Assembly (NCBI GenBank): GCA_036337435.1
Contig: JAYZEG010000070.1
Location: 1-21,124, forward strand
Length of the DNA stretch: 21,124 bases
Source: Myxococcota bacterium
GTDB lineage: Bacteria; Myxococcota_A; Bradymonadia; UBA7976; UBA1532
Direction of reading: 5' to 3'
The notes under the pieces were generated by a model. It was not told the DNA's origin. It was given only the letters and a program-made list of their open reading frames with translations, and made no database searches. Below, piece by piece: positions 3 to 16,605 of this stretch. The first letter of the stretch is position 1; the number at the start of each line of letters is the position of its first letter. The position numbers and the translations under genes are program-made.

Positions 3-1346
3 GCGGTTCATCTGCACAATGAAGTTGCTTGGTATTTCAACAGAATCAGTTCATGGGGGTTCGCGCCGGCTGGTGCAAATGTTAACCGGCAAACCTGCGA
101 CACCATGGCGATCGCTGGTGAACAGAGAATGTGCTGGGAAACTGTTGAAGACCGTCTGAGTGGTGGCGGACGCTGCGGCCTAAGAGCCAACAACCCGGCT
201 GAATATGAACGCATCATCTTTCATCGGCGAGGGGGGCCTGTAACCGAGTGCAGCGCCGTCGTTGGCCAACCCGCTGGTGAGGAAGTCTGCAATGATGTCG
301 ATGATGATTGCGATGGGCATATTGACGAAGGCATACCGGGCGTCGGTGACTCGTGCCCTTTGAATACGCCAACTCCTTGCCGTCGCGGTGTATTGCGATG
401 CCAGGGCGACGGTCAGTTGACTTGCCAGCCGGTCGATGTGGCACCACAGGTGGAACGTTGCAATGGCCTGGATGACGATTGCGATGGACAGGTCGACGAG
501 CATGCCGTCGGTTCAGGAGAGCCATGTGACCTCATCGGTTTGGGCCGTTGTCAGATAGCGCAGCGCCAATGCATCGCGCCAGGTGAGTTGGTGTGTCAAG
601 CTGTCGCTGATCCGGCTGCGCAGGAGCTTTGCAATGGTTTAGATGATGACTGTGATGGCCGGATTGATGAGACATTTCAGCAGCTGGGCCAAGGCTGCTT
701 TGTCGGCGAGGGTCTCTGTCGACGTGAAGGACGCATCACCTGTGGTGGGGGGCGGGGTGAACTTGATTTAGCCTTTAACGGAGTCAGGCGAGATCTCACC
801 CATGAGCAGGCAGTCGAAATGGGGTTTACTCAGTGCTGGTCTGGCCATTATGGGGACCAGGGACCCGTCAACCCGATTCTTGAGGCATGCGCCGAAAATG
901 AACTCATGCTGGCCTGTCGACGGACCGGCCGGCCAGAACTATCGGTGGCGGCAACGGGGCGTCGCTCTATCGTCTTGACAGACGTTCGGGATGAACGGTC
1001 ACCGATGAACGTGCACAATGGCGTCAATTGGTTTTTTTCTGACAGCTATTCATGGGGATTCGTCCCGGAAGGAGCATTGGTGGTTCGGCGGCCGTGTGAC
1101 ATCGCTCAGGGCGAGGACGCGGCCCGCTTGTGTTGGCACACCCAGAATGGGACTCTCCGCGAAGGGTACCGCTGTGGTCAAGAGACCGGGCTAAACGGAG
1201 ATTTGTGGGAGCGGGTTTTGTATCATAGAACGGCACAACCCGCTTTGAGATGCGACACTGAGCCTGGTCAACCTATGGAAGAGCAGTGCAACGACGCAGA
1301 TGACGACTGTGATGGCCTCATCGATGAAGCGGCTGATTGCCAATAA
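3..1346 (+). CDS. Cys-rich surface protein, 5'-truncated by the window, with MopE-related metal-binding repeats and two copies of an unnamed Trp/Cys-rich domain
   Basis: The frame of ORF 105..1346 is open back to base 3 (AVHLHNEVAWYFNRISSWGF...), so the start lies outside the window. Four repeats: EVCNDVDDDCDGHIDE, ERCNGLDDDCDGQVDE, ELCNGLDDDCDGRIDE, EQCNDADDDCDGLIDE. Stop TAA at 1344-1346. Confidence 0.8.
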   Translation, partial: AVHLHNEVAWYFNRISSWGFAPAGANVNRQTCDTMAIAGEQRMCWETVEDRLSGGGRCGLRANNPAEYERIIFHRRGGPVTECSAVVGQPAGEEVCNDVDDDCDGHIDEGIPGVGDSCPLNTPTPCRRGVLRCQGDGQLTCQPVDVAPQVERCNGLDDDCDGQVDEHAVGSGEPCDLIGLGRCQIAQRQCIAPGELVCQAVADPAAQELCNGLDDDCDGRIDETFQQLGQGCFVGEGLCRREGRITCGGGRGELDLAFNGVRRDLTHEQAVEMGFTQCWSGHYGDQGPVNPILEACAENELMLACRRTGRPELSVAATGRRSIVLTDVRDERSPMNVHNGVNWFFSDSYSWGFVPEGALVVRRPCDIAQGEDAARLCWHTQNGTLREGYRCGQETGLNGDLWERVLYHRTAQPALRCDTEPGQPMEEQCNDADDDCDGLIDEAADCQ

Positions 1347-1457
1347 GGCCCTTGGCGGCTGTATACTTTGAGCTGTCTACGAAAATATGTAACCTATGGT
1401 CACGGGTGGGACCTAATGGATGTCGGCACCACTTCAGAAAACAGGGATAAAATTCTA

Positions 1458-3797
1458 ATGAACAGGAAACGGGTTCAAGCTTTTAGGCGGCCCAAAGGCC
1501 ATGCAGCGTACCGTAGACTATTTGCGTTTGGTTGCGTGGTTTTCATTACGGCGTGTAATAAGCCGTCGCCAGAGAAAACAGCCCCGTCGCCAGCGCCGGT
1601 CGCAAAAACTCAGGCACAAAAAAAGAATGTGCAAGAGCCGGCGAGTCCGGGTGTTAAACCGCAAACGCCAACAGTTCCAGCCGCTTTGGCCAGTCCCGTG
1701 GTCGACCCACGAAAAGCCAAAGCGGATGCTGCTGTTAAGGCATTTTGCTCGAGGTGCCACGCCTTTCCGGAGCCGAGTCAATTCACCATGCAGACTTGGG
1801 CTGAGACTTTGAGGATGAAGCTTGGTTACTTTAGAAAATACAAGATCGATGTTGAAGGCGCGCCGCCGCCCGCAGAGCTTTTCGGCTACTATGCTGCCAA
1901 TGCTGCGAAAACATTGCTCGTACCCTCGTTTGAGCCGGCTGGTAATTTCAAAACGAAGCTTACACCTGTGCGGAGTTTTGGTCTGCCCGCAGAAACCGTG
2001 ATTGCGGACCTGGTCACGACGCGCGAGGGCGATGGTTTCGGTGGAGCAGCGATACTCTCTGATTTGTTGTCCGGCCGAGTTGTCAGCGTAGACGCGTCCG
2101 GCGCAACGCAGTTACTCGCCACATTGCGGCATCCAGCGCGTCTCCATGTCGTTGATGTAGATGGAGATGGTCAGAAAGATATTATCGCAGCTGAACTCGG
2201 GACATTCAGCGCAGTCGACCACAAGCGGGGAGAAGTCGTCTTATTGAAGCGGGCGGGAAAAGCATTCAAAGCAACTAAGCTTCTTGGTGATATTGGCCGT
2301 GTATCGGAAGTTGTGTCGGGAGACCTGGATGGTGATGGTCATCCTGACCTCGTGATAGCCGAGTTCGGATGGCTGACGACGGGCTCCCTTACTGTGCTCT
2401 TCAATCCAGGTGGCAAAAAGGCCTCGAAAGCTCAGGCGTGGCGGTCAGACAAGCTCGACGCTGGCCGAGGGGCAGTGTCCGCGAAAGTTGCTGATTTAGA
2501 CGGCGATGGGGTCAACGAGATCATCGCATTGTTTGGACAGGAACGAGAAGAAGTGGTCGTCTACAAGCGGCTGCCCAACGGTCGTTTTCGGTCCAAGCGG
2601 GTTTATGAAGCTGGAAATCCGCTATGGGGTGGAACCATATTGAAGCTGGCCGACGCAGACAAAGACGGAGATTTGGACGTTTTGGTGGGAAATGGGGACA
2701 CGTTGGACTCGCCTCGCGCGGCAACTTTTCAAGGGCTGCACTTACTGACCAACCAGGGCAGTCTACGTTTTGAACACCAACAATTGGCAGCATTGCCGGG
2801 CCTTCAAGACGTCGAGGTGATCGATTATGACCGGGATGGCGACCTCGACTTTGTCTTGGCTGCAAGCGTCACACCCACCGTTCTTCAGATGCTAGAGTCA
2901 TCGGTTCCAGCGGGTCGTGTCATTGGGTCACTCTTGCTCCTACAGCGTGAAAAAGATGGCGTGTACAAAGCCGTGACATTGAGTGACCGTCCCCCCTGTT
3001 ACTCCGCGTTGGCCAGCACAAAAGACGGTGACCTATTCATCGGTAATTTCGGTCTGGGCTGGGAGATTCTCGGCCAGAAACAATCCGTGTCGGCCAATCA
3101 GAGGGCATTGAGTGATTGTTCAGATGAGGCTCCGCTCAAACTCTGGTCCTTCAAAGAGCCAAAAGGGAAGGCTGAGACTGCAGATGTGGCCAAACTGGAT
3201 TGGCGCCAGGCTGATGCCAGACGGCTCAAAGCGCGCGTCGCAGCGTTTCGACGTTTGCTCAAAACGGAGCCATTGCGAGCGGGCTATCACATGGGACTCG
3301 GCATATCACTCGCGCAATCCGGCGAAAAGAAGGAGGCGCTCGAGGTCATGCGCCGTGCGGTGGGGCTCAATCCCAACTCACCTGACTTGCACGTGAACGT
3401 CGCGACTCTCCTCAACACCATGGACGAGTACAGGGAAGCTGTCTTGATGGCAGATAAGGCACTCAAATTGCGCAAAAACTACCCGGAAGCCTTGAATGCG
3501 AAGTCGGTGTCTCTCGCACGTATGGCACGAATACAGGAGGCTTTGGACTTGTCCCGCAAAGCCATTCAGCTGAAGCCGCGTTTTTTGCCTTTCCGATTTA
3601 ATTTGGCCAACTTACTCATGTTTCAGCAAAAGGCGAATGAGGCTGTACGCGAGCTGGATGAAATCCTGGTGATCGAGCCCGGACACCCCGTCGCGCAGTC
3701 TATGAAAATGCAGTTGATGAGCCACTTACGGGGAGGGGCACCGTCGGGCGGGCCTGGTTTTCCCGGTGGAGGTTTTCCGGGCGGCCCGCCCCGCTAG
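1458..3797 (+). CDS. Putative lipoprotein: c-type heme domain, FG-GAP/VCBS-like beta-propeller, C-terminal TPR repeats
   Basis: ATG 1458 follows AGGGAT (start uncertain). Basic N-region, hydrophobic stretch and lipobox-like FITA|C; Pro/Ala/Lys linker; CSRCH at 1746-1760; DxDxDG repeats (DVDGDGQKDI, DLDGDGHPDL, DLDGDGVNEI, DADKDGDLDV, DYDRDGDLDF); TPR-like helices (RRAVGLNPNS, KALKLRKNY, KAIQLKPRF, EILVIEPGH). Confidence 0.8.
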   Translation: MNRKRVQAFRRPKGHAAYRRLFAFGCVVFITACNKPSPEKTAPSPAPVAKTQAQKKNVQEPASPGVKPQTPTVPAALASPVVDPRKAKADAAVKAFCSRCHAFPEPSQFTMQTWAETLRMKLGYFRKYKIDVEGAPPPAELFGYYAANAAKTLLVPSFEPAGNFKTKLTPVRSFGLPAETVIADLVTTREGDGFGGAAILSDLLSGRVVSVDASGATQLLATLRHPARLHVVDVDGDGQKDIIAAELGTFSAVDHKRGEVVLLKRAGKAFKATKLLGDIGRVSEVVSGDLDGDGHPDLVIAEFGWLTTGSLTVLFNPGGKKASKAQAWRSDKLDAGRGAVSAKVADLDGDGVNEIIALFGQEREEVVVYKRLPNGRFRSKRVYEAGNPLWGGTILKLADADKDGDLDVLVGNGDTLDSPRAATFQGLHLLTNQGSLRFEHQQLAALPGLQDVEVIDYDRDGDLDFVLAASVTPTVLQMLESSVPAGRVIGSLLLLQREKDGVYKAVTLSDRPPCYSALASTKDGDLFIGNFGLGWEILGQKQSVSANQRALSDCSDEAPLKLWSFKEPKGKAETADVAKLDWRQADARRLKARVAAFRRLLKTEPLRAGYHMGLGISLAQSGEKKEALEVMRRAVGLNPNSPDLHVNVATLLNTMDEYREAVLMADKALKLRKNYPEALNAKSVSLARMARIQEALDLSRKAIQLKPRFLPFRFNLANLLMFQQKANEAVRELDEILVIEPGHPVAQSMKMQLMSHLRGGAPSGGPGFPGGGFPGGPPR

Positions 3798-4174
3798 TCT
3801 TTGTGACCTAGGTGGGCGACTAGGCTGGCGCACTTGGCCTGTCGAGTTTTGATCTCCGTTAAAATCCGCTCGATGACCACGGCTGCGCGGCTGTTGAGAT
3901 ATTTACTCTCGGCAGCCTCATGACACCGAGTTGCGAGGTCTGAGGCTCTGGGAGCAAGTTTTTTTAGTACCCTGTGACATTTCTTGTTCAAGCGCTGGAT
4001 GGTGCCGATGTGTCGTTCTGCGCGGACCGCTATGCCTTTCTGCTTGGCTGACATTGCGGCCTTGAGGGCTGTTACACAAGGTTGTCGTTCGCTGTCCTTG
4101 GCTTGACTACGGGCATTCAGTGGATTGAATAACAATGCCATCAACAGACCCAACTGGCTCAAGTTTCTGTTCAT
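3794..4174 (-). CDS. Small basic secreted hypothetical protein (126 aa, 4 Cys)
   Basis: Signal-peptide-like N-terminus (MNRNLSQLGLLMALLFNPLNARSQA). ATGA overlap with the acylase stop (4171-4174). Its TAG shares the CTAG at 3794-3797 with the convergent gene's TAG. Confidence 0.6.
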   Translation of the reverse strand: MNRNLSQLGLLMALLFNPLNARSQAKDSERQPCVTALKAAMSAKQKGIAVRAERHIGTIQRLNKKCHRVLKKLAPRASDLATRCHEAAESKYLNSRAAVVIERILTEIKTRQAKCASLVAHLGHKD

Positions 4175-7100
4175 TCATTGTACTCCAATTCTGAACTGGG
4201 AGAGAATGCAAGTCGTCCAACGCTGCCATTAACGACATCGGCGACATGGAAGCGCATTGGCACGGTTTCGTTGGCGAGCCAAAGGGCAAGTTGGTCGGCG
4301 AAATGGGGTGAATTGAAGTCCCCCGATTGGCCGCCTGGAAGGATGTTACGTCCCTTGACCTCACCGGCTTTTAGTCCGATGACCATTCGCATCACCGGAC
4401 CGTTCTTGTGTCTGAACGAGCCAGACATGCCAGGATTTGCGGCATCGACCGCCCATTGGTCTCCTCCACGCGGAAACCATTTGAGAGACCGCCTCGGATC
4501 ATCATTTGTTAAGCGTGTTTGAAGGGGGAGTGTCGCAGTCGTGATGGCAAAGACGTCCAATACGCTTTCGAAAGCGGGGCTATCCGTTACGAAGTCCGCA
4601 AGGAGTGACTCGAATCGAGCTTGATGTCGCATGCCCCAAAGCCAATTGCTCATCTCTTGAGTGCCAAAGCCGCCATCGGACCCGTTCTCAGTGCTTGGGC
4701 CGCTCAAGAAACGGTCTGTCTCTTCCAGCGCAAGCAACATCACCTCAGTGCTGGTCTCCACTTGGTCGGTGCCGATTCGATCAAAGAAAACCGATTCCCC
4801 AGTTTCATCAATCCAGCTGCTGTGCTGCTTGGGATTGTCAGGTCCTCGCCCGTCCAGAAAACGTTTAAGAGCAATAATTTTGTATTGTTCTTGCGGAAGT
4901 GTCCAAGCGTTATCTACCCCTTCATCATCCCACGTCAGGTTCAGGAATGACCGAATCCAAACATTGAAGATCATGGTCGCTACGGCGGCAGCCCGATCGG
5001 CATCGCTTGGTGCGTCATAAAAGGTTTCCACGCCCGATGGTGTATCACATCCGGTCCTTATCCAGTCTTCTATCCGTTGTCGATATTCAGCCAAGCGCGT
5101 TTCGCTGAGCTCCGTTATCCTTCTGCGGAATTGTGCATCGGACAGGGCAGAGTCGATAGCTCGGATCAGATAGGGCGCGAAGATTTCTCCGAGCCGAGAG
5201 GTGCGTTCTGCTTGGATCTTGGTCATAGACTCTACATTGACTTGTCCGGCGTCCAGTTGAGACTCGAGTGCCCGTGCGATGGAGTGGGCACGGGTGGAAT
5301 TCCAAGGGCCTCCGATATATCTTGGATCATCGAATAAAGCCCCGTTGTGAGTTGCCCCGGCCGGGTCATTATTTGCAGCGACGAGATAGCCGGTCTCAGG
5401 GTTTACCGCCTGGGGAATCTCGTCGAATGGAATGACACACTGATACGGCTTGTCGTTTTTGCTTTCATCTACGCTGCCGTTTATCGTTGGTATATTGAAT
5501 CCGCCGTAGCGTTTCCCATCTAACAAGAATCGTGGATGAGCATCGACCATCCACCGACCATCGTCATCGCGTTCGAGATAGGAGCGGCATGGAAATCCTT
5601 GATATGAACTAAAGAAAATATTGCCATCTTTATCACCGCCCGCTGTATAGAGTCCGTTGCCAACGAGACCTTTCATACTCTCGCGCAGCTCCTCCGCTGT
5701 CTTCGAGAAGCCAGCCTGGTTGGCCGCGTCTAGATAGGTCGTGCCATCGAAGGCGGTATAATCGAAGCTGATCGCCGAGATCACCCCATCGTCGTCTGTA
5801 TCCCCAGGTATGACCCGGCGACCAATGGCTTGGAATACATACGATGGGCCGCCATCTTCGGTGGGTTCTATACCTTCAATCTCAGTGATTAGACGCCCGT
5901 CGAAGGTCTGATATCGGCTGTGTGTCAACTGTCGACCCTGGCTGCCAAGTGCAGGCACATCCGCCACTTGATAGGTTTCGTCTATTCTGACTAGGGGGCG
6001 CCACTCTCCTTGGAAAAATGAATGGGTCGGGCGCCCAGAGGGGTCGAGCTGCAACGATTCAGCATACCAATCGACTGTGTCCGCATAGGGATTGACTTGG
6101 CTCCACGCAACATGCCCATTTGTACCAGCACCAAGAACGGGCAATTGCGCCATAAGTATCCCTACTTGCCGATTGTCTTCCTCGCCGTAAACAGAGGTAT
6201 CGAGACCGACCAGATAGGTGACCGGCGGCACGGACAATGGAAGATGTCCATCCCCGGCGACCAATGTAAATCCCTCCTCGGTTTTTGAGCCCGAGACGGC
6301 CCATACATTCGACCCAATGCCTTCCCGTGTTCGGCGCATAAGCCGTTGCTCGATGGTCCAAAGCTGAGTCGATAGGCCGACGAGCAACTTCCTCATCGCT
6401 GACCCTGAGCGTCCATCGGGTGAGGATGGCATTCTGGGTGCGGGAAGGGCGGTGTCGGTTGGTAACCGTCCATTGAGCCCAAAGCCAGTCGTGGTTGAAT
6501 AGGGAAGTAGCGGGCTTAAGTCACCGAGGACGTCACGAAGGAAGCCTGAACGTCGTTTGTCTGAGAACGGTGCATCCTCAAAGAGGGTGTTGTGATTTAG
6601 GACGGCCGCACTGCGCTGAATGTCGCTGGTGTCGAAGGTGGTTTGATACATTACGACAGCCGCCATGGCTGTCATGTCTCGTAGGGTCCAGTCTTCAAGG
6701 AGGTCTGATGGGCTGGCCGCCAATAGGCCTGATGCCAAACTGAACTCGATGGGCGGGGATAAGATGCCTGCTCTTACCGCGTCTAAGTAGGCGTTGATTC
6801 CATCTACCACTGATCCCAAGTAGCTTCTCATGTCCAAAGACATGCCCTCGTCCAATTGTTTGGCGACAAAAGGAATGCCCGTTAATCGAGCGTCGATATC
6901 GCTTTCCAGTGCCAAATCACCCAAAAGGGCACTGATGGTGCCGAGACCCAGCCGACGTTGCATATCCATAATAAAATATCGATCACGAGCAAGAATAAAT
7001 CCGAGAACTCGACCCAGGTCGCTTCGGCTTTGCGCATACAGATTGGGTGCCCCACCCTCGGTTACGAGCACCTGAACGGGATAATCAAGACCTGGAAGGC

Positions 7101-7296
7101 CCCACGCCTCCGTGAGGGGGACTGATTCGATCATTGTTTTTGGGTCTGAACGGTCGTCGTCGGCGTCTGGTCTCAATGACAGGTCGGTTAGGACGGAGAG
7201 ATCACCCATACCTCCGTCAGTCCTGGTTGGACCTGTATCGGACGAACCGCAGCCTGCGCTTGCGGCAACCATCATCACTAAGAGGCGATAACTCAT
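4171..7296 (-). CDS. Penicillin acylase family Ntn-hydrolase (peptidase S45), probable lipoprotein
   Basis: Alpha-subunit motifs (GFILARDRYFIMDMQRR, GINAYL); nucleophile motif GIG|SNVWAVSG with the Ser codon at 6310-6312; DGHL, GTNGHVAWS, NPETGYLVAANN, PGGQSG..SPHFADQLALW. Start placed at ATG 7296 because it overlaps the upstream stop (ATGA) and gives a lipobox-like ASAG|C. Confidence 0.9.
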   Translation of the reverse strand: MSYRLLVMMVAASAGCGSSDTGPTRTDGGMGDLSVLTDLSLRPDADDDRSDPKTMIESVPLTEAWGLPGLDYPVQVLVTEGGAPNLYAQSRSDLGRVLGFILARDRYFIMDMQRRLGLGTISALLGDLALESDIDARLTGIPFVAKQLDEGMSLDMRSYLGSVVDGINAYLDAVRAGILSPPIEFSLASGLLAASPSDLLEDWTLRDMTAMAAVVMYQTTFDTSDIQRSAAVLNHNTLFEDAPFSDKRRSGFLRDVLGDLSPLLPYSTTTGFGLNGRLPTDTALPAPRMPSSPDGRSGSAMRKLLVGLSTQLWTIEQRLMRRTREGIGSNVWAVSGSKTEEGFTLVAGDGHLPLSVPPVTYLVGLDTSVYGEEDNRQVGILMAQLPVLGAGTNGHVAWSQVNPYADTVDWYAESLQLDPSGRPTHSFFQGEWRPLVRIDETYQVADVPALGSQGRQLTHSRYQTFDGRLITEIEGIEPTEDGGPSYVFQAIGRRVIPGDTDDDGVISAISFDYTAFDGTTYLDAANQAGFSKTAEELRESMKGLVGNGLYTAGGDKDGNIFFSSYQGFPCRSYLERDDDGRWMVDAHPRFLLDGKRYGGFNIPTINGSVDESKNDKPYQCVIPFDEIPQAVNPETGYLVAANNDPAGATHNGALFDDPRYIGGPWNSTRAHSIARALESQLDAGQVNVESMTKIQAERTSRLGEIFAPYLIRAIDSALSDAQFRRRITELSETRLAEYRQRIEDWIRTGCDTPSGVETFYDAPSDADRAAAVATMIFNVWIRSFLNLTWDDEGVDNAWTLPQEQYKIIALKRFLDGRGPDNPKQHSSWIDETGESVFFDRIGTDQVETSTEVMLLALEETDRFLSGPSTENGSDGGFGTQEMSNWLWGMRHQARFESLLADFVTDSPAFESVLDVFAITTATLPLQTRLTNDDPRRSLKWFPRGGDQWAVDAANPGMSGSFRHKNGPVMRMVIGLKAGEVKGRNILPGGQSGDFNSPHFADQLALWLANETVPMRFHVADVVNGSVGRLAFSPSSELEYNE

Positions 7297-7865
7297 ATTT
7301 GATCCAGTGGGTGTGATTTTCGATTTTTCTCTTTGGTCCGGTGAGCGTGCCCTTTGAACTTGCGCCCCGCACCATGGCGCCAAGTCCACATAGAGAGAAT
7401 GAGAAGAACATAGAGCGTGAGTTGTGGTCGGGCCAAATCGGTCGGTGTTGATGATACGCAGCTACATGATGGTGCCGTTGGTGCTCGACTCAGGCCCGCC
7501 TGAGTTGTCTCCTGCGTTGCCGCGACATGAGTTTTCGGCAACATGTCGGCCTGGGCTGCGAGCGGGGGTGGCATTAAGTGCGGAGGCAGCAGTGACCGCC
7601 TTGAGCTCGTTTTCGGCCCGTAATTCGTAGCCAAGTAATCCAAGATTTTTGCTTCGTCGCTGGGTGGAATTTGCCATAGATTTTGGGTTGCCTGCATCCA
7701 ACGGATAGTCTTTTTCCATTCGGATCGGGTTCCTCGGTTCTGTGTAATGAGACTTGCGGAGTGACAGCTCGTACAATGCGCCTTGACGAAAAGAACACCC
7801 TCTGATTCAGCCAATGCTGTAGGCGCACTTTGAATTATAAAATAAAACGCGATGGTGGCGGTCAT
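7293..7865 (-). CDS. Monoheme cytochrome c, probable electron acceptor of the sulfite dehydrogenase (SorB/SorU-like), with C-terminal membrane anchor
   Basis: ATG 7865 in an ATGA overlap with the Mo-enzyme stop; signal peptide ending ALA|E; CTSCH at 7761-7775; WKKTIRWMQ...ILDYLATNYGP; C-terminal SCSC, hydrophobic stretch and basic tail. Confidence 0.8.
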   Translation of the reverse strand: MTATIAFYFIIQSAPTALAESEGVLFVKAHCTSCHSASLITQNRGTRSEWKKTIRWMQATQNLWQIPPSDEAKILDYLATNYGPKTSSRRSLLPPHLMPPPLAAQADMLPKTHVAATQETTQAGLSRAPTAPSCSCVSSTPTDLARPQLTLYVLLILSMWTWRHGAGRKFKGHAHRTKEKNRKSHPLDQI

Positions 7866-9121
7866 GAAGCCTCGATCCGGATGGCGACTCGATGGCACGC
7901 ATTATTCAAGTAACCTTTTGGATTCCATCCCGGCAAGACCATTGGTTGGCTACGGCCATCTTCGTCTGTTGCGCGAGCCCATATCTCGTAATAACCAGGT
8001 CCCATCTTGGGAAGTGTAAGGCGAAACTGCTGCCAACAGTATCGATTGAGGGGTCGATTCAATTTGGCGCGAATCCATGTTTGGCCAAAGTCCACCGAGA
8101 TATGTAGTTCTGCGACGGGTCCAGTCCCACTCCAGGCGTGCCCCTCAACGTCGACGGGGCTCGCCTCTTTTAAAACGGTGCCAGAGGCGGGCCTTGTGAT
8201 GAGAGATTTGACTGGCATGTCTTCGATGATGCACATGTCAGTGTCCTCAACCGGAGAGCCTGGTGCCACCGGACGGCATGGGATGCGATACGATTTTTCG
8301 CCCATTTTAGGCCCGTCGTGTACTTTGTTTCGAATGAGAAGCCCCGTCAGCCATTTGCCAGAACATGAGCCTGGAAAGCCAGGGACGACAAGCCGTAACG
8401 GATAGCCATGCAAACGAGGGATGGGCTCATGATTCATGCTCCATGCGATCATGCAGTCATCGCTCATCGCCTTTTTCAGCGGGATGCCCCTTGATATAGG
8501 CTTCTTCCCATCCTGCCCACTGAGATGGCTGTCTGCGCCAACATACGCGACGTAGATGGCGTCGCTCGTCATTTCGACCTGTTCCAGCAACGCTTTCAGC
8601 AGGATGCCAGTCCAGGTAACACAGCCGACCGCTCCCGTCGTCCACTGGTTGCCCTTTGCACTGGGGGTGAATTCGTTCCGGCCATTGCCAGCGCATTCGA
8701 GGACATAGGTCCGGGTCACGATCGAGAAGCGAGCTTTCAATTCAGCAATGGAAAAGGTGACGGGTTTCTTGATCGATTCACCCTCAATGATGAGACGCCA
8801 ATCTTCGGCAGACCCTGCCTTCGGGGGGATTCCATTGTTGCGCACAAAAAGGTGGCTTGCCGGCGTGACCTGATGGGTGAGAAGATGCGCTGGCGTTTCA
8901 ATATTAAGTGGCCGCTCGTTTAAGACGGTCAGTCCGCTTATTTTACTGGACGGTAAGTTCGGTGGCCTTGGCCCAGCGTGGACGCTGCTGACGAACTCGA
9001 AATGGTCATGTCGCTGGCCAAAAAGTGAGAAAAGTGCCATTGCCAAGCCACCCTGAATGAGCGTCCGCCGGCTCATTGATGACCGTTGAGTACCGCCTTG
9101 GCTTGTGTGCTGATTGGTCAT
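7862..9121 (-). CDS. Sulfite oxidase family molybdoenzyme (SorA/SorT/SoxC-like sulfite dehydrogenase), Tat-exported
   Basis: Twin-arginine SRRTLI signal; LFVRNNG; Mo-ligand motif LECAGNGR; HGYPLRLVVPG; SGKWL; dimerisation domain (VKSLIT, GHAWSG, SVDFGQTW, WARATD..G..QP, WNPKGYLNN). Confidence 0.92.
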   Translation of the reverse strand: MTNQHTSQGGTQRSSMSRRTLIQGGLAMALFSLFGQRHDHFEFVSSVHAGPRPPNLPSSKISGLTVLNERPLNIETPAHLLTHQVTPASHLFVRNNGIPPKAGSAEDWRLIIEGESIKKPVTFSIAELKARFSIVTRTYVLECAGNGRNEFTPSAKGNQWTTGAVGCVTWTGILLKALLEQVEMTSDAIYVAYVGADSHLSGQDGKKPISRGIPLKKAMSDDCMIAWSMNHEPIPRLHGYPLRLVVPGFPGSCSGKWLTGLLIRNKVHDGPKMGEKSYRIPCRPVAPGSPVEDTDMCIIEDMPVKSLITRPASGTVLKEASPVDVEGHAWSGTGPVAELHISVDFGQTWIRAKLNRPLNRYCWQQFRLTLPKMGPGYYEIWARATDEDGRSQPMVLPGWNPKGYLNNACHRVAIRIEAS

Positions 9122-9141
9122 TCACCCCCCCGAAAGAGAGT

Positions 9142-10227
9142 TTAGATCATTACCTGAAGAAGTCCGAGTGAAAAGACAGACAAAACAAACGCCGAGAAGA
9201 AACCAGCGTACAGTGCTTTCAGGCCGATATTCTTGAGCGTTCTGAAGTGAACGCCGAGTCCTACCCCAGCCATGGCCATCGTGACAAGAAAAAGGGATGC
9301 TGTCGTGACAAGACTCTTCATCGATAGCGGAATGGCTGCCGCTGACCAAAATGCACTGTCCTTGAGATGGACGGTGAAATCGGGCAAAAGATTTGCCGAA
9401 TTGGCAATGGCGAGAGCGATAAATCCAAGGATGAAGGGCGGAAACAGTGTGGTCCACTGGGCCCGTCTTGGTACATATGCTTCTTCCTTTCGCCGTTTTT
9501 CTCGCGCATACCATACGCCGAGAAGAAGGAGCATGGGTGCAAGCAGGAGAACGCGGACAAGTTTTACGATCACTGCGATTTCGCCAGCAGATTCGCTGTA
9601 AGCGAAGCCGGCTGCCATGACTTGGGGCGTCGCCTGGATTGCAATGCCTGCCCAAATCCCAAATTCATTGTCTGTTAGCCCCAAAGCATGGCCAAGTGGG
9701 GGGAACACGAAAATCGCGGCGAGTCCAAAAATTGTAATGGTGGTTATCGCGAAGGCGGTGTCATTGTCATCTGCCTCGATGGATGGTGCCGAGACAGCGA
9801 TTGCGGTTCCGCCACAGATGGCCGTTCCAATGCCGATCAGCAGTCCAAGCTTTTGCCCGACGCCTAGCTGCTTGCAGAGCCATAGGGTCAGGGCCAATGC
9901 AACAATGACGCAGAGGGTTGATAGCAGTAACGCTTGTCCAGACACTTTCAACACGTAGTTGAAGTCGAGTTTTGCACCCATGAGTACAATGGCAAAGGGA
10001 AGCAGCCTCTTGACTGAAAACTTAATCCCGCTTCCTGCTGTTCTTGGCAAATACAGGGTGTTGCGAACAAGCATGCCGAGCACAATGGCGATTAGCAATG
10101 CGTCGATGGGATGACGACCATCGATGGTAAATGGTGCAAATGGCAGTTTGTTTATGTAGAGCGCGAGCGCAGCGATTGTCGCTGTGAGTGCAGTGCCAAG
10201 CCAGATGCTTTGTCCTTGGTCAGCCAC
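9142..10227 (-). CDS. YeiH/UPF0324 putative sulfate (sulfite) exporter family membrane protein
   Basis: Many hydrophobic segments; family motifs AIVLGM, LIGIGTAICGGTAIAV, FGIWAG.AI..TPQV.AAG, VKLVRVLLLAP, MAMAGVGL. GTG start 3 bp after the cysK stop. Confidence 0.88.
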   Translation of the reverse strand: MADQGQSIWLGTALTATIAALALYINKLPFAPFTIDGRHPIDALLIAIVLGMLVRNTLYLPRTAGSGIKFSVKRLLPFAIVLMGAKLDFNYVLKVSGQALLLSTLCVIVALALTLWLCKQLGVGQKLGLLIGIGTAICGGTAIAVSAPSIEADDNDTAFAITTITIFGLAAIFVFPPLGHALGLTDNEFGIWAGIAIQATPQVMAAGFAYSESAGEIAVIVKLVRVLLLAPMLLLLGVWYAREKRRKEEAYVPRRAQWTTLFPPFILGFIALAIANSANLLPDFTVHLKDSAFWSAAAIPLSMKSLVTTASLFLVTMAMAGVGLGVHFRTLKNIGLKALYAGFFSAFVLSVFSLGLLQVMI

Positions 10228-10230
10228 GGG

Positions 10231-11184
10231 TCAAATAATGAAATCCAGCCCGGGAGCTGGACCGAGGGGGTTGTCCTGGCTGAGATAACGCTCCCAACTG
10301 TCACAAATCACAGTGACAACGGTTTTACCGGGTCCGATGGCCGCGGCGAGTTTGACTGCGATAGCCACATTGGCTCCGGCTGACAGGCCTGCCAAAATGC
10401 CTTCTTCGCGAGCCAGTCGGCGAGTCATCTTATAAGCGTCAGTGCCATCACAGGTATAGATTTCGTCGATCACAGTGCGGTCTAGATTCGATGGGATAAA
10501 GCCGGCACCGATCCCTTGGATTGAATGCGGTCGTACTTGCCCTCCGCCAATGGCTTGGGAATCAAAGGGTTCGATGGCAACGATCTTGGTTGCCGGATAC
10601 TCGGCCTTGAAGACGCGCCCCACACCTGAGACCGTGCCGCCGGTGCCAACGCCGCTGACGAATACATCGGGAGCGGCCCCGAGGGCTGCGACGATTTCTT
10701 TTGCTGTCGTTTCCGAATGTGCATCTGGATTGGCCGGGTTCGAGAATTGCTGCGCCATAAAACACCGAGGATTACTGTCCACGATTGCTTGAGCACGCTC
10801 TATGGCCCCCTGCATGAGCTTGCGAGCAGGTGTCAGGATGACCTGAGCTCCAAGATGCTCCATAAGTTTGCGTCGTTCGTTAGACTTGTCATCGGGCATC
10901 GTGATGATCAGTTTGTAGCCTTTGACGGCCGCAACCAGTGCTAATCCAATCCCGGTGTTCCCGCTGGTCGGTTCAACGATGGTATCTCCAGCTTTGAGCA
11001 CCCCTTTTGCTTCAGCGGCCTCGATCATCGCAAGGGCGATACGGTCTTTTACGCTGCCCCCGGGGTTGCTTGACTCAAGTTTAACCAAAACCGTCGCTGA
11101 GGGGCGTTCGACAACCCGTTTCAGTCGCACCATTGGCGTCTGTCCGACCAACTCAAGTACATTGTCCGAAATCAAGGGTTTCAC
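10231..11184 (-). CDS. cysK: Cysteine synthase (O-acetylserine sulfhydrylase, CysK-like)
   Basis: GQTPMVRL; KLESSNPGGSVKDRIA (PLP Lys); EPTSGNTGIGLA; QQFSNPAN; GVGTGGT; HSIQGIGAGF; ERYLS. Confidence 0.9.
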   Translation of the reverse strand: MKPLISDNVLELVGQTPMVRLKRVVERPSATVLVKLESSNPGGSVKDRIALAMIEAAEAKGVLKAGDTIVEPTSGNTGIGLALVAAVKGYKLIITMPDDKSNERRKLMEHLGAQVILTPARKLMQGAIERAQAIVDSNPRCFMAQQFSNPANPDAHSETTAKEIVAALGAAPDVFVSGVGTGGTVSGVGRVFKAEYPATKIVAIEPFDSQAIGGGQVRPHSIQGIGAGFIPSNLDRTVIDEIYTCDGTDAYKMTRRLAREEGILAGLSAGANVAIAVKLAAAIGPGKTVVTVICDSWERYLSQDNPLGPAPGLDFII

Positions 11185-11290: not shown

Positions 11291-13117
11291 CTATTCGGCA
11301 TCTCCCTCGGCGTCTATCCCGGCATCGGCTACGTCATCTACATCAGACTCGCTGTCTTGCGCGTTACCCATGTCTGGATTATCCGGTTCTGCAGCACCAC
11401 AGGTCTCAACACCCGTCTCGGGAAGGGCGTCCAAATACTCGACGTTCATAGATGTGATTTGGACCTGACTCGCACCTGGGTTCAGGAATAGCGTATGTAA
11501 CTTCTGGCCCGAATCCGGCAGACAGTTTGCAGCGAGGGTGAGCGCTTGATTACTGCCATTCAAAGCCGGGGTAAATTTATATTCGTAGTCAAATTGAACA
11601 GGCCGACCAGCAGTGACTGCAATGGGGGTGTCTTTTCGAACCATTAAGCTCAGCGGTGACGCACTGCCCCCGCCTCCGAAGCCAGGAACTGGTCCTTGGC
11701 CACCCGCAGAAACTGACCATGACAGGCGTACGGCGCTTGTTCCGTCTTGAGGTCTTACGTGAAATTGCTTAAAGGCCGGAACACCATCTACAAAGCCGCT
11801 GACGCCAGCCGATTGGGTGCCTTCGACTAAATGTGGAAGAGCATTTCGTCCAGCGTTGAAGCGAGACCAGCCCAAAGAACGTTCACATGAGCCGAAACCA
11901 TGGCGGGCAAAAATATCGGCCGCTTGAGCTTCAACGTCAGGCCCAAAGTCAGCAGCTACACCTAACATGAGGGCTGCAGCGGCGGCATGATTTGTCCCGT
12001 AAGTGAATTGTTCGAGAGCCAGGTAGGCGATGGATTCGGCGATTTCTGACCCGACGGCTTCTCGCAGCGACCAGAGCGTGCTTCCAATGATTTCTCCCTG
12101 CGCGTGCACTTCGTCGACCGTGTCATCGGGACATATTTTGACGTTACTCAAGTCTCTCAAGCCGAGACCCATGACGCCCACATATTTGCCGATAACCGGG
12201 TCGTTAGAGATTGACGCTGCGAAAAAATCGGCGAGCCCCTCGTTCATTGAACGTGGGGACATATCAAGTCCGTATTCATCAAGAACAGCACCCACCGAGA
12301 GTCGATTGGTGCCGACGACCGCGTGTGTGTACTCGTGATAAATGACTCGACTGTCATAGGCGAAATCGAGGTCCCCTTGAAAAAAAACAATGCTGTCGCT
12401 GTCGCGCGGCGGGAGTCCGAACTGAGACGCAAATTGTCGCCACGCTTCTTTCGGGAAGAAGGCAGCATTTGACAGGCCGATCCAGCCATCAGGACCTGGA
12501 TTCAGAAAGGGCAGTGGTGGGTCAACTTGGATTTGCACGTTAACCAGGGCTGGCAGCGGGTAATCGAGTTCAGCGAAGCCATGTACATCCTTGAAGTAAT
12601 CATGGGCCTGGTTGACATGATGATACATCATGATTTCCGCAAATTGGTCATTGGGGTCACTATCCTGGTCTGGTGGTGCGATGCTCAGGTAATGCCCATC
12701 GGGGTCTGGTCTGACGGTCTGCACCTCGTTACACAGAGCGATGGAGATGTTGAAACCCCCAACGTCTGGCATTGCAACGACGCCACCCTCTTCGTTGAGG
12801 CAATTGAATACTTGGACCCAGGGGCTGGTCAGAGCCCCTTCAGGATGGGCCGATTTCTCGACTGTCACCTCAGACAGGGTGCCCTCATCGGTCGTCGGGT
12901 CATTGAGATAAACCGAAGCGAGTGGCTCGTCGAGCAGAGGGTAGTTGATCTGGGGCTCCTGGCCTCCAAGATCGATTGGCCTGATAGCCGCATCGGCACT
13001 CAATGATGCATCAGGTGTTAAGATGACGATGCCCTCATTTGCCGGCTTGTTGTCTATGCAGCCCGACGCCAGGGCGAGGGAGAGGAACGCTGCAGCACTC
13101 TTCAGATGTATGTTCAT
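11291..13117 (-). CDS. Zinc metalloprotease, thermolysin/fungalysin-like (M4/M36) catalytic domain, lipoprotein
   Basis: ATG 13117 after GAGAGA; lipobox LASG|C; MMYHHVNQAHDYF; HEYTH at 12323-12337; third ligand motif NEGLADFFA; EVHAQGEIIGSTLWSLR; acidic C-terminal tail. Confidence 0.85.
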   Translation of the reverse strand: MNIHLKSAAAFLSLALASGCIDNKPANEGIVILTPDASLSADAAIRPIDLGGQEPQINYPLLDEPLASVYLNDPTTDEGTLSEVTVEKSAHPEGALTSPWVQVFNCLNEEGGVVAMPDVGGFNISIALCNEVQTVRPDPDGHYLSIAPPDQDSDPNDQFAEIMMYHHVNQAHDYFKDVHGFAELDYPLPALVNVQIQVDPPLPFLNPGPDGWIGLSNAAFFPKEAWRQFASQFGLPPRDSDSIVFFQGDLDFAYDSRVIYHEYTHAVVGTNRLSVGAVLDEYGLDMSPRSMNEGLADFFAASISNDPVIGKYVGVMGLGLRDLSNVKICPDDTVDEVHAQGEIIGSTLWSLREAVGSEIAESIAYLALEQFTYGTNHAAAAALMLGVAADFGPDVEAQAADIFARHGFGSCERSLGWSRFNAGRNALPHLVEGTQSAGVSGFVDGVPAFKQFHVRPQDGTSAVRLSWSVSAGGQGPVPGFGGGGSASPLSLMVRKDTPIAVTAGRPVQFDYEYKFTPALNGSNQALTLAANCLPDSGQKLHTLFLNPGASQVQITSMNVEYLDALPETGVETCGAAEPDNPDMGNAQDSESDVDDVADAGIDAEGDAE

Positions 13118-13145
13118 TGGTGTCTCTCTGGGGTCCGAAAGTCGA

Positions 13146-13784
13146 TTAGTGAAGGAGGGCATTGCGTATGCTCAAAAGGGCACCCGTTGATGCATCTATG
13201 CGAACCTTGACGTGGCTTACCATGGGTAGGGGAGCAACATTGAATTCATAAATGGGGGTGGCGAAAGCTCCGGTTGTCGTCAAACCGAAAACCGCTTCAA
13301 TGGCCTTCATGCCAACCGGCTTTGAACCGAAGCGGGCCTCGAGTGCGCTTGACACAGCGGCTCGCGCCTGTCGTTCATCGATAACGGCTCGCGCTGCCCC
13401 CGTTATGGGGACGCAGTCCGTATTGAATGCAATGATGTGGCCATCTCCATCTACGGTCACTGTTGCCGAACGGTCTAAAACGATGGTGTTGTCATGCCAT
13501 TGACGGTACCGAAGCACGGTGCGCCCCTTGGTTGTGACCTCAGATTCAAAGCGGAGTCCAGGTCCGCCTGTGAGCAGGCTAAAACGATCGAGAAAGTAGC
13601 GTCCTCTCTCTCTGTTCGTTTTTCCTTGCGTAGGCAGTTTTATCCTTGTGATGACTCGCGCTTGGCCGGAGGTTGTGGACCAGACGATACGGGCATTGGC
13701 CAGTGTCTCTAGTTGGGTGCGTACCTCAGTTGGGGCCAGGGGCGTTCCAAGAAAGGTTCCAATGATAAAGAAAAAGGGCAGCAT
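13146..13784 (-). CDS. Stand-alone FTP + PepSY protease propeptide-like protein
   Basis: GGAGG RBS 4 nt before ATG 13784; hydrophobic signal MLPFFFIIGTFLG; FTP-like TVLRYRQWHDNTIVLDRSATVTVDGDGHI; PepSY-like IDERQARAAV...YEFNV...VRIDASTGALL; no HExxH. Confidence 0.75.
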   Translation of the reverse strand: MLPFFFIIGTFLGTPLAPTEVRTQLETLANARIVWSTTSGQARVITRIKLPTQGKTNRERGRYFLDRFSLLTGGPGLRFESEVTTKGRTVLRYRQWHDNTIVLDRSATVTVDGDGHIIAFNTDCVPITGAARAVIDERQARAAVSSALEARFGSKPVGMKAIEAVFGLTTTGAFATPIYEFNVAPLPMVSHVKVRIDASTGALLSIRNALLH

Positions 13785-14097
13785 GATTCCTCCGTTCAAC
13801 TCGACCCGATGAGCAAAATGACGTGTCGTATTGGTCACGCTGATTGGGTCAGCGCACAAAACGATGCGCTGCCGATACAGCAACTCTCGGTCCGGTTACT
13901 GGAAAAAAGATAAAGAGTCTTTTTGAGTGTCTCAATAACCGGTTTCCTATGGGTACTGCTAGCCCCTTTGTCAGTTTAAAATTTTGTGTCTCACCCTATG
14001 CGACGACTCTATTTTTCGGGATGAAAATTTCGCGGTGAGTTAAGATTGTTGGGGAGCCGTTTTAAAGACCTGAGCTGTCTGGCCGATGTATTAGGTG

Positions 14098-16605
14098 ATG
14101 AACAAGAAACTCAAAGTACGGGTTTTTAAGTTTGGCGGCTCAAGTTTATCGAGTGCGGAACGCATCGTTGCAGCTGTCGGGCTTGTCGAGGCCGGCCTCC
14201 GCACGAGTAACGTGATTACAGTGACATCGGCGATGGGTGGTACGACGGATCGGCTGAGTCATCTGGCAAGCTCCGGCGTGTCTTCGACAGAATGGGGTCG
14301 AACTGTTGATTCATTGAGTGACCAGTACCTTGACGTCGTGACCCGGCTTGAGCTCGCTGACTTCTATCGAAACCGCGTATCTCAGCTTTTGGACCGCTTG
14401 CGAAGCCTTTATCCTCAACAAGGGCCGACGGATTCCGAGAGCCGGAGAGATGAGATCATGGGATTTGGGGAACGGCTTACAGCCCCCCTTTTTGCGGGCC
14501 GTTTGGCGAAGACCGCGAGCGGGTCAAATGCGGCTTTGCTCGATGGGACCGATTTCTTTCTGACAGACGCTAACTTTACCGATGCATGGCTGGTCAAAGA
14601 TGAGACCTATGCCGCTGTGTCGAGGGCCCTTGAACCTCATCTGGTTCCGGCGCGCCCGGTCGTGGTGACGGGCTACTGTGGGCGAACCCATCTTGGAGTA
14701 CCGACGACTTTAGGTCGGGGTGGTTCAGACTCGACTGCAACGGTCATTGCAAGAGCTGTAAATGCTGAATCAGTCACCTTGTGGTCAGATGTTCCCGGTG
14801 TCATGACCGCGGATCCTCGGCGGGTTGGGGATGCCCGTACTCTGCCGCATCTGTCCTATGGCGAGGCTGCTGAACTGTCTTTCTATGGTGCGAAAGTGCT
14901 TCATCCAAGGGCAATGCAGCCTGTCTCAGAAGGCTGCATCCCCGTTCTCTGCAAGAGCACCTTTGCGCCTAACGAGCAAGGCACTTTAATCGACAGTCGT
15001 GGGCCCGGAGGCGTCGACCCAGTCAAAGCATGTAGCCTCGAATCAGGATACAGAAGCATGTCGATCATTGGACCCGGTATGGTCGGACTTTCTGGTGTGG
15101 CAGCCCAGGTTTTGGCCGCACTCGCCGCGGTAGAGATTAATGTCGTCATGCTCAGTCAGGCTTGCTCTGAGTTAGCTTTGACGGTGGTGGTACGGGGTAA
15201 GGACTCAGACCGTGCGAGGCGCGCACTGGAGGCGGCCTGTGAGCGGGACGTTCTCAAGGACGCCTCGGCGAGTCTTAGACTTAGGCCGGAACCCATCAGT
15301 CTGATCGCGGCAGTTGGAGCAGACATGGCGCGTGTTCCCGGTGTGGCGGGTCGATTCATGACCGCTCTCGGAAAAGCCAAAGTGAATGTTGTTGCCATTT
15401 CACAGGCTGATACTGAGCTGAACATAACAGCGGCAATCGAAAGCCAATCGGGTGACGTTGCCCTGCAGGCGATTCACGAGGAGTTTGGGCTGGGTCGACG
15501 GCCAACTATCAATGCGAATCAGCAAGGGTGTGACCTTTTGCTGCTCGGCATGGGTCAAATTTCAACCAAGTTTGTTGGCCTGGTGCAGGACCAAATTCGC
15601 TCAGGTGTTGGGCTCAATATTGTTGCTGTCGCTGACACGAGCGGCTTCTTATTTCGACCCCCTGGCGTCGATCCAGCTGAACTCAATTCGGCCTACTTTG
15701 GCAAAAAAGAAGGTCGGCAACTTAAGTCACTTGGACATGTCGTTGACGGTGATAGCGAGTCGTTGATTCGAAAGGCCCTTCAATATCGATTGAATTCGCC
15801 AATCGTGGTGGACATGACGGCAGATTGTGGTCTGGCGGATGCGTTGGTGACTGCCAAGAGGCTTGGAGCCCATGTCGTAAGCGCGAACAAAGCACCCTTC
15901 GCAGGCTCCATAAGTCAATTCAATGATTTATTTGAAGGCCAGGGGATGACTTGCATTGAGGCGACGGTTGGCGCAGGCCTGCCCGTCATCGATACGTTGC
16001 GTAGCCTTCGAGACACAGGTGATTCGGTTCAACTGATTGAGGGCTGTTTTTCGGGTACGCTTGGATATATCATGACCCGGGTCGAAGAGGGGATAAGCCT
16101 GTCAAAAGCTGTGCTCGAGGCACTCGATTATGGTTATACTGAGCCAGACCCTGCCATTGATTTGAGCGGATTAGACGTGTTTCGAAAGGCCGTCATATTG
16201 GCGCGGGTGGCCGGCTGGATACCTGGTCAGTCTGCGGACGATTGTCGTCCCTTTATTGCGGACTTGGGTACGGGTCTCCCCAAACAGGTACTGATGAGAC
16301 GTATAGAGGGGCAAAATTCGGTGTTCGCAAAATCCGTAGAGGCGGCGGCGAGTCGAGGGTCGCGGCTGAGATATGTTGCCACGGTTGACCCAACGGGGGT
16401 CAAGGTTGGGCTCAAAGAGTTAGATGGGACTCACCCACTCGCCCAGCTGAAAGGGACTGACAACATGGTCGTTTTCTCAACGGCACGTTACAGCGAGCGC
16501 CCCCTGGCCATAATGGGGCCAGGTGCCGGGCCTGATGTGACAGCCATGGGCGTCATGGCCGATGTCTTAAGGATCATACGGCAGTCTCGAGTGACCTATG
16601 CCTGA
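14098..16605 (+). CDS. thrA: Bifunctional aspartokinase / homoserine dehydrogenase
   Basis: Kinase motifs FKFGGSS, SAMGGTTD, TTLGRGGSD, WSDVPGVMTADPR, ELSFYGAKVLHP; two ACT-like domains; dehydrogenase motifs VVSANK, EATVGAGLPVI, GYTEPDP..DLSGLDV.RK, GPGAG..VTA. Start is ATG 14098 or GTG 14095. Confidence 0.93.
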   Translation: MNKKLKVRVFKFGGSSLSSAERIVAAVGLVEAGLRTSNVITVTSAMGGTTDRLSHLASSGVSSTEWGRTVDSLSDQYLDVVTRLELADFYRNRVSQLLDRLRSLYPQQGPTDSESRRDEIMGFGERLTAPLFAGRLAKTASGSNAALLDGTDFFLTDANFTDAWLVKDETYAAVSRALEPHLVPARPVVVTGYCGRTHLGVPTTLGRGGSDSTATVIARAVNAESVTLWSDVPGVMTADPRRVGDARTLPHLSYGEAAELSFYGAKVLHPRAMQPVSEGCIPVLCKSTFAPNEQGTLIDSRGPGGVDPVKACSLESGYRSMSIIGPGMVGLSGVAAQVLAALAAVEINVVMLSQACSELALTVVVRGKDSDRARRALEAACERDVLKDASASLRLRPEPISLIAAVGADMARVPGVAGRFMTALGKAKVNVVAISQADTELNITAAIESQSGDVALQAIHEEFGLGRRPTINANQQGCDLLLLGMGQISTKFVGLVQDQIRSGVGLNIVAVADTSGFLFRPPGVDPAELNSAYFGKKEGRQLKSLGHVVDGDSESLIRKALQYRLNSPIVVDMTADCGLADALVTAKRLGAHVVSANKAPFAGSISQFNDLFEGQGMTCIEATVGAGLPVIDTLRSLRDTGDSVQLIEGCFSGTLGYIMTRVEEGISLSKAVLEALDYGYTEPDPAIDLSGLDVFRKAVILARVAGWIPGQSADDCRPFIADLGTGLPKQVLMRRIEGQNSVFAKSVEAAASRGSRLRYVATVDPTGVKVGLKELDGTHPLAQLKGTDNMVVFSTARYSERPLAIMGPGAGPDVTAMGVMADVLRIIRQSRVTYA

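Follow-up and report, generated by a model that had tools for sequence, protein, structure and literature searches.

The present study analyzes a run of six minus-strand genes at 3794–11184 of a 21,124-nucleotide (nt) stretch of marine Myxococcota DNA, here called the window, which is contig C70 (JAYZEG010000070.1) of assembly G000 (4.38 Mb in 95 contigs, 87% complete). Patterns of gene content, spacing, conservation and phylogenetic placement make it probable that the run is a mosaic of three layers: a cysK-yeiH pair, a cassette of a molybdenum (Mo) enzyme and a cytochrome c, and an acylase with an orphan open reading frame (ORF) that are mere neighbors of the other two, with sulfite being exported and then oxidized. 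Those patterns were observed; the substrate, the direction of transport, co-transcription and any role of the tail found on CysK are what we infer from them. It is plausible that two conserved pairs, cysK-yeiH and Mo enzyme with cytochrome, were brought together locally into a module for the export and oxidation of sulfite. The features concerned are as follows.

10231–11184, minus strand: CysK paralogue, 317 amino acids (aa), with an O-acetylserine sulfhydrylase core (TIGR01139) and a clade-specific C-terminal extension
10234–10275, minus strand: C-terminal tail of CysK, residues 304–317, ...PGLDFII-COOH, recognized by its conservation in YeiH-linked CysKs
9142–10227, minus strand: YeiH/PSE-family membrane transporter, 361 aa, probable sulfite exporter (PF03601)
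7862–9121, minus strand: SUOX-family molybdoenzyme with twin-arginine translocation (Tat) signal, 419 aa, probable sulfite dehydrogenase catalytic subunit (PF00174 and PF03404)
7293–7865, minus strand: mono-heme c-type cytochrome, 190 aa, with CTSCH at residue 31 and a C-terminal CxC, hydrophobic helix and basic tail
4171–7296, minus strand: lipoprotein Ntn-hydrolase of the penicillin-amidase family, 1041 aa (PF01804), the acylase of the text
3794–4174, minus strand: orphan small ORF, 126 aa, with a signal-peptide-like N-terminus and 4 Cys (ORF call)

The close packing described in the initial annotation was confirmed by ORF calls and by reading of the junctions, with six ORFs filling the interval, gaps of 3 nt between cysK and yeiH (10228–10230) and of 20 nt between yeiH and the Mo-enzyme gene (9122–9141), and ATGA start/stop overlaps at 7865–7862, 7296–7293 and 4174–4171. 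Its domain assignments likewise agreed with Pfam and NCBIfam scans (TIGR01139, PF03601, PF00174 with PF03404, one CxxCH, and PF01804). The yeiH/Mo-enzyme junction is not an artefact of assembly, because a contig from an independent marine metagenome run, X6 (record 30), bridges 9019–9330. Tight spacing by itself is unremarkable: among the orthologous loci, 25 of the 74 that could be assessed allow a 4-nt overlap of Mo enzyme and cytochrome.

Under the preferred reading, cytoplasmic sulfite would be expelled via YeiH, candidate origins being the 3'-phosphoadenosine 5'-phosphosulfate (PAPS) reductase step of assimilation, thiosulfate-derived S-sulfocysteine and cysteine breakdown. The periplasmic Mo enzyme would oxidize the exported sulfite to sulfate, and the electrons would reach the respiratory chain by way of a membrane-tethered cytochrome c. 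When metagenomes were scanned with an alignment of Mo-enzyme orthologues, 507 relatives were found, of which the best 80 were examined (50–60% identity, guanine-cytosine (GC) fraction of the locus 0.35–0.69). The cytochrome adjoined the Mo enzyme in 76 of these 80 loci and a YeiH-family gene, 24–38% identical to that of the window, was adjacent in 30; when only the 53 loci having 1200 nt or more of upstream sequence were counted, YeiH was adjacent in 26, lying upstream on the same strand in 21, divergently in 4 and downstream in 1, and PF03601 was confirmed for four representatives. Recurrent neighbors across the 80 loci were a 129-aa rhodanese directly past the cytochrome (16 loci), DsrE_2 (14), a metallo-beta-lactamase (MBL)-fold protein (12), a TauD/TfdA-family dioxygenase directly upstream of YeiH (10) and a two-domain rhodanese (7), while a divergent CysK/M-family gene followed in 4. 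A partnership of YeiH with the Mo enzyme is thus supported, since about half of the assessable orthologous loci place the two side by side among sulfur genes. Together with the CysK-YeiH pairing and the published work on sulfite resistance and export described below, this upholds that part of the initial annotation which joined a YeiH exporter to a periplasmic SorA-like enzyme in a sulfur module; its extension to all six genes did not hold.

Phylogenetic analysis suggests that this partnership arose more than once. On the Mo-enzyme tree (FastTree) the window copy was nearest to that of G003, a genome of the same genus, and YeiH adjacency was scattered, with at least nine changes forced by well-supported branches. 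On a quick IQ-TREE phylogeny the window YeiH fell inside a 20-row CysK-linked clade as sister to the copy of another congener, G001 (Shimodaira–Hasegawa-like approximate likelihood ratio test, SH-aLRT, 99), and 25 of the 26 SorA-linked YeiHs formed a separate clade (SH-aLRT 96), the 26th, from L109, being a long branch outside it. Because the window YeiH belongs with the CysK-linked proteins and the SorA-linked ones stand apart, its juxtaposition with the Mo enzyme is independent of the common metagenomic arrangement, and such independent juxtapositions would argue for function and against shared descent. As a separate observation, the order aldo-keto reductase (in 8 of the loci), TauD/TfdA dioxygenase, YeiH, Mo enzyme and cytochrome c occurs in the low-GC loci L110, L115, L119, L141, L164, L168, L176, L183, L106 and L108, and looks like a route from sulfonate to sulfate.

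The Mo enzyme matched the SUOX domain at 170 bits and the dimerization domain at 70 bits, both over the cut-off, and its nearest solved relatives, at 155–167 bits, were SorT (4pw3, the best at 167 bits), a Thermus enzyme, chicken sulfite oxidase and SorA. Cys143, within ECAGNGR, aligns with the cysteine of CSGNGR in SorT, whose Cys127 is the Mo ligand according to the SorT paper. A twin-arginine motif, SRRTLIQ, was read at residues 17–23, followed by a hydrophobic stretch, and MoaA, MoeA and TatC are encoded elsewhere in G000. The CxxCH of the cytochrome is its only one, and a search of PDB sequences with this protein gave a chance match only (E 0.28). Its C-terminal CxC, hydrophobic helix and basic tail (7293–7565, minus strand) are common to G003 only (L026, 3211–3400, minus strand); orthologues from metagenomes have a similar core without these elements. 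The tail looks like a MYXO-CTERM-type sorting signal, and no model matched it. Past the helix the frame continues for 27 residues in the window, to the start of the acylase, as against 7 in G003, so the ATGA overlap of cytochrome and acylase may be a by-product of a local joint.

Compared with the periplasmic sulfite:cytochrome c oxidoreductases SorAB of Starkeya novella (2blf) and SorT/SorU of Sinorhizobium meliloti (4pw3), the window pair shares the SUOX fold with dimerization domain, the C(A/S)GNGR cysteine motif, the twin-arginine leader and an adjacent gene for a small c-type cytochrome at tight or overlapping spacing. Unlike them, the window enzyme belongs to a separate, mostly uncultured clade below all equivalog cut-offs, the cytochrome in its genus bears the CxC, helix and basic tail, and a YeiH-family gene often lies ahead of the cassette. 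Literature searches on YeiH/PF03601, on SorA or sulfite dehydrogenase and on sulfite exporters returned no description of gene linkage between YeiH and a sulfite dehydrogenase, nor any account of YeiH paired with a CysK that bears the tail. A Rhodococcus paper, in its accessible portion, names SorA-like and YeiH genes together with gene numbers that are far apart, and in a paper on regulation of sulfite-oxidizing enzymes the words exporter, permease and transporter are absent.

The window YeiH matches PF03601 over its full length (256 bits, residues 11–341 on profile positions 2–303 of 304) and falls short of the TIGR00698 subfamily cut-off (168 vs 232.6 bits); the YeiH/PSE family is TC 2.A.98. 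Genetic work on distant members ties such transporters to sulfite. As far as the available parts of these reports go, yeiH is needed for resistance to sulfite stress in Salmonella by a mechanism stated there to be still unknown, BP2808 of Bordetella pertussis is treated as a sulfite exporter and is induced by cysteine along with cysteine dioxygenases, and YeiH of Hyphomicrobium denitrificans (Hden_0834) is induced 526-fold by thiosulfate. What the window has in common with these, and with YeiE-YeiH of Salmonella, E. coli and Cronobacter, is a PF03601 transporter linked both to the handling of sulfite and to cysteine metabolism. It differs from them in having no LysR-type YeiE neighbor, in the tight coupling of yeiH to an upstream cysK paralogue and a downstream sulfite dehydrogenase, and in scoring below the TIGR00698 cut-off.

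The other conserved pairing is on the other side of yeiH. A scan with a YeiH alignment, one genome per species, gave 27 loci, and CysK lay directly upstream of YeiH on the same strand in 22. The pair was present in all 20 loci whose YeiH had at least 56% identity, these being 19 of Myxococcota type, spanning Bradymonadia, Polyangia, Kofleriaceae, Nannocystaceae, Haliangiales, Myxococcales and "Deltaproteobacteria", and L059, from an "uncultured proteobacterium"; the other two were from Acidobacteria and Latescibacterota, one each. Where the yeiH start is clear, the distance from cysK is 0–13 nt. No third gene was conserved with the pair beyond subgroups of the 27 loci. The window CysK passes the equivalog threshold of TIGR01139 (398 bits, cut-off 351), its best PDB match is the cysteine synthase 2egu (333 bits), and it has SVKDR at 44, TSGNTG at 73 and GTGGT at 180, so that the pyridoxal phosphate (PLP) lysine and the asparagine loop are present. 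Cysteate synthase (CapA model, 204 vs a cut-off of 600) and CysM (271–278 bits vs cut-offs of 394–413) were considered as identities and rejected. G000 holds four genes of the CysK family, namely that of the window, another CysK of higher score (434 bits), CysM and a CBS-like protein; with three others present, one of them scoring higher, the window cysK is taken to be a dedicated paralogue.

The CysK proteins linked to YeiH carry a distinctive tail. That of the window continues for 14 residues past ...ERYLS to end in DFII, and does not have the ordinary CysK C-terminus, while CysK paralogues of the same genomes lack the tail and terminate shortly past ERYLS. A D-F-[I/V/M]-I ending was found in 19 of 19 assessable Myxococcota-type loci and in the window, that is in 20 of 20 CysKs of the YeiH-linked clade, among which D314, F315, I317 and W297 are invariant; the loci bearing it are the window, L058–L076, L084, L063, L188 and L189. 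When the pattern was sought in DNA, 4 of 401 genomes of the phylum matched and the reversed control gave 0, and YeiH was immediately downstream in all 4. A search of the protein collection with the C-terminal region found close relatives only, those with names being plain "cysteine synthase A". Conservation of DFII merely as a ribosome-binding signal for yeiH was ruled out, since the tail codons vary synonymously in lower-GC genomes and the distance to the start of yeiH is not constant. An AlphaFold2 (AF2) monomer of CysK had a mean predicted local distance difference test (pLDDT) of 87.5 with residues 301–317 below 50, and because of the latter no docking pose is claimed for the tail; a predicted complex of CysK and YeiH (score 0.11, mark 0.32) counts neither way.

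A terminal isoleucine also anchors the tail of serine acetyltransferase (CysE) in the CysK active site, according to the accessible part of PMC9547175, and the YeiH-linked CysKs resemble CysE peptides of that cysteine synthase complex in having an invariant C-terminal isoleucine after hydrophobic or aromatic residues. They differ in that the tail is on CysK itself rather than on the partner protein; the CysE-like protein of G000 ends in ...SEDAG, without terminal isoleucine. One could imagine a self-capped CysK in which the D-F-I-I tail would mimic the serine-acetyltransferase tail and fill its own active site or that of its dimer partner, so that activity, and possibly sulfite efflux by YeiH, would be gated by O-acetylserine or sulfide. 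We regard this as distinctly unlikely. If true, cysK(DFII)-yeiH would be an undescribed sensor or valve unit of sulfur homeostasis, to which enzymes that make sulfite (cysteine dioxygenase) or use it up (SUOX) have repeatedly been added in different lineages.

Variants of the CysK-YeiH arrangement were also recorded, the first two of which lend further weight to a functional link. Just behind YeiH in L065 (8106–9616, minus strand), L066 and L072 is a convergent pair of cysteine dioxygenase (PF05995) and a second, tail-less CysK, and cysteine dioxygenase is also near YeiH in the Phycisphaeraceae locus L080 (1137–1835). In L062 and in G257 (L188), both Myxococcota, CysK-YeiH is flanked divergently by a distant SUOX enzyme (4166–5806, minus strand, and approximately 2628–3023, respectively) with a fused C-terminal cytochrome c domain. 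For L064 (6014–8077, plus strand) the CysK match ends at residue 251 and one long frame continues through YeiH, which may reflect a frameshift, misassembly or a fusion.

Comparison with relatives separates the layers. G001 (100% complete) has thrB, FTP, M36, CysK, YeiH, acylase, FG-GAP/TPR and MopE genes in the same order as the window, with 69% identity for CysK, 74% for YeiH and 61% for the acylase; there YeiH and acylase are separated by a spacer of 116 nt with neither Mo enzyme nor cytochrome, and the sole SUOX relative in the genome is a 38% paralogue on a different contig. G003 has CysK-YeiH at a contig end and, on a separate contig, the Mo enzyme (57–61% identity) with its cytochrome, behind a divergent acyltransferase-like gene and ahead of a TIG-domain protein. 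Mo-enzyme orthologues of G016, G018, G023 and G024 (50–58%) adjoin GH113, sigma-54 regulator, or rhodanese and fatty-acid-hydroxylase genes, and the other window genes were not found near them within the stretches retrieved. All six genes together, or even CysK-YeiH with Mo enzyme and cytochrome, occurred in no other genome or contig examined. The six-gene functional unit of the initial annotation is therefore not sustained, given the G001 site and the finding of neither acylase nor small ORF in any of the 80 Mo-enzyme loci. The comparison of gene neighborhoods which that annotation had called for found both the acylase and the Mo-enzyme/cytochrome pair scattered among relatives.

Several observations weigh against the reading of a mosaic in which exported sulfite is oxidized, and they concern the enzyme, the transporter, the source of sulfite and the acylase. 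The Mo enzyme misses the NCBIfam equivalogs for SorA (233 bits, cut-off 600), SorT (219, cut-off 570) and SoxC (200, cut-off 420); the cytochrome reaches 32.5 bits with the SorB model, cut-off 93, and is predicted to be SorB-like but not a SorB equivalog. No YeiH was detected with this query in 27 of the 53 assessable Mo-enzyme loci. The cassette may have been either inserted in the window or deleted in G001, the junction DNA having no homology with the 116-nt spacer of G001 (best local score 19, shuffled mean 19.4). The enzyme could have some other activity of the SUOX family, as a SoxCD-like sulfane dehydrogenase or an S- or N-oxide oxidoreductase whose place behind yeiH is incidental, and this would fit the missed cut-offs, the modest likeness to solved sulfite-oxidizing enzymes (167 bits) and the copies in the nearest relatives (G003, G016, G018 and G024), which are not beside YeiH. 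We think it very unlikely, however, as the top three family scores are all for sulfite or sulfane dehydrogenases, the Mo-ligand cysteine motif and dimerization domain are present, a small c-type cytochrome is the partner as in SorAB, the neighborhoods of orthologues are dominated by sulfur genes and YeiH, and SoxD/SoxYZ-like genes were not seen among their recurrent neighbors.

Direction and substrate of YeiH are drawn from the genetics of distant members, and export in particular is a genetic inference. It is conceivable that transport is inward, CysK-YeiH serving uptake plus fixation of thiosulfate, sulfite or sulfate, with the Mo enzyme conditioning the source or detoxifying external sulfite. 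CysK is biosynthetic by every sequence criterion and its pairing with the transporter is conserved, both of which would suit uptake, but the available portions of the Salmonella and Bordetella papers report that loss of yeiH raises sensitivity to sulfite or cysteine, sulfite-producing TauD-family and cysteine dioxygenase genes adjoin YeiH genes, and a sulfite importer beside a periplasmic sulfite oxidase would compete with it for one substrate. Inward transport is thus judged unlikely and export of sulfite is preferred.

As for the source of sulfite, G000 encodes CysD, CysN/C, CysH and an EpsC-like serine acetyltransferase, and neither a NIR_SIR sulfite reductase nor a cysteine dioxygenase was found in this 87% complete assembly. 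NIR_SIR is present in the three relatives searched (G001, G003 and G016), and the 19-kb sulfite-reductase region of G001 has no counterpart in the G000 assembly except one weak paralogue match, which reflects either loss or missing assembly. If the loss is real, sulfite derived from PAPS would be without a reductive sink and its export and oxidation would make particular sense. A TauD-family gene on contig C10 of G000 was considered as a source of sulfite and rejected, as it matches no NCBIfam equivalog and has unrelated neighbors. An ArsS-type arsenosugar radical-SAM gene (414 bits, over cut-off) was noted approximately 1.6 kb from cysH (G000 contig C47; L099, 8229–9344, minus strand).

The last of these points concerns the acylase, which adjoins YeiH in the two genomes of the genus where it occurs and is 5.5 kb away from YeiH in G025 and G026, of another family; with its start overlapping the cytochrome stop, it may have a local functional tie. 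The initial annotation had taken the whole run as one operon in which the exported acylase frees organosulfur compounds from prey or detritus, their sulfur passing through CysK-linked metabolism to sulfite, which is exported and oxidized. One strand, genes overlapping or nearly touching from cysK to the small ORF, and the following of YeiH by the acylase in G001 too, across its longer gap, speak for such an operon, as does the proximity in G025 and G026, but in the latter two MotA/MotB genes on the opposite strand, DUF2914 and an FAA hydrolase stand in between. Across the YeiH loci the acylase was within the 7-kb flank in 3 of 27 and adjacent in 1, so that it does not travel with the sulfur genes, and in 41 related genomes the spread was unequal, with acylase relatives in 31, YeiH in 9 and a Mo-enzyme orthologue (at least 50% identity) in 6. 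Nor is there a desulfonating enzyme nearby, the small ORF has no homologue, and the closest solved relative of the acylase is a D-succinylase at 81 bits. A six-gene operon of this kind is most improbable, and nothing was found in support of action on organosulfur compounds. The solved relatives of the acylase are remote and its distribution is decoupled from the sulfur genes.

The best reading of the acylase would be that of a bystander, a syntenic neighbor at the level of the genus only. It matches PF01804 over its full length (363 bits), Ser329-Asn330 lines up with the beginning of the beta chain of penicillin G acylases, at the nucleophile position, and a lipobox, SAGC, was read at the N-terminus. 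With the PvdQ model it scores 18.5 against a cut-off of 950, placing it outside the characterized PvdQ/acyl-homoserine lactone (AHL) acylase subfamily. It resembles penicillin G acylase, D-succinylase and PvdQ in the PF01804 match and the Ser-Asn at the N-terminal nucleophile of the beta chain, and is unlike them in being about 200–270 residues longer and, by its lipobox, a lipoprotein. The small ORF belongs to no Pfam or NCBIfam family and found no homologue but itself, at near lengths, in a collection of 5.8 billion proteins; there was no counterpart in the equivalent 487-nt interval of G001 or in 14 acylase loci, and its codon score is weakly positive in frame.

These patterns bear on two open points, namely the route by which sulfite passes from the cytoplasm to periplasmic sulfite dehydrogenases and the actual role of YeiH proteins. 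Repeated, phylogenetically independent placement of YeiH beside this clade of sulfite dehydrogenases offers comparative support for YeiH as a sulfite conduit, as does its placement by TauD-family and cysteine dioxygenase genes, and the operons are simple ones to test. That YeiH is so strictly coupled to one subclass of cysteine synthases, marked by a terminal-isoleucine tail, is a specific peculiarity, open to experiment, in an enzyme family that has been studied in depth. What the original proposal said of the acylase can be given up.

The run is bounded by further genes that are syntenic in G001, assigned by Pfam.

13146–13883, minus strand: FTP-propeptide protein
11291–13162, minus strand: M36-like metallopeptidase
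1368–3797, plus strand: convergent FG-GAP/TPR protein

The same-strand run truly starts upstream of cysK, with the FTP gene and then the M36 peptidase, which ends 106 nt before cysK, and is closed by the FG-GAP/TPR gene, whose 3' end overlaps the small-ORF stop by 4 nt. Between 3500 and 14200 there were 4 promoter-like sites vs 6.6 expected and 18 terminator-like sites vs 10.5 expected, none of either at an informative junction, and an Rfam scan of this interval gave 0 matches at E up to 1. Divergent from the run is a threonine operon at 14095–18702 (plus strand), coding for a bifunctional aspartokinase/homoserine dehydrogenase, a GHMP-family homoserine-kinase-like protein and a threonine-synthase-like PALP enzyme, with start/stop overlaps of 8 nt (16598–16605) and 4 nt (17527–17530). 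Proteins with MopE-type copper-binding repeats are encoded at both ends of the window (3–1346, plus strand; 19783–21123, minus strand), the left one being syntenic in G001.

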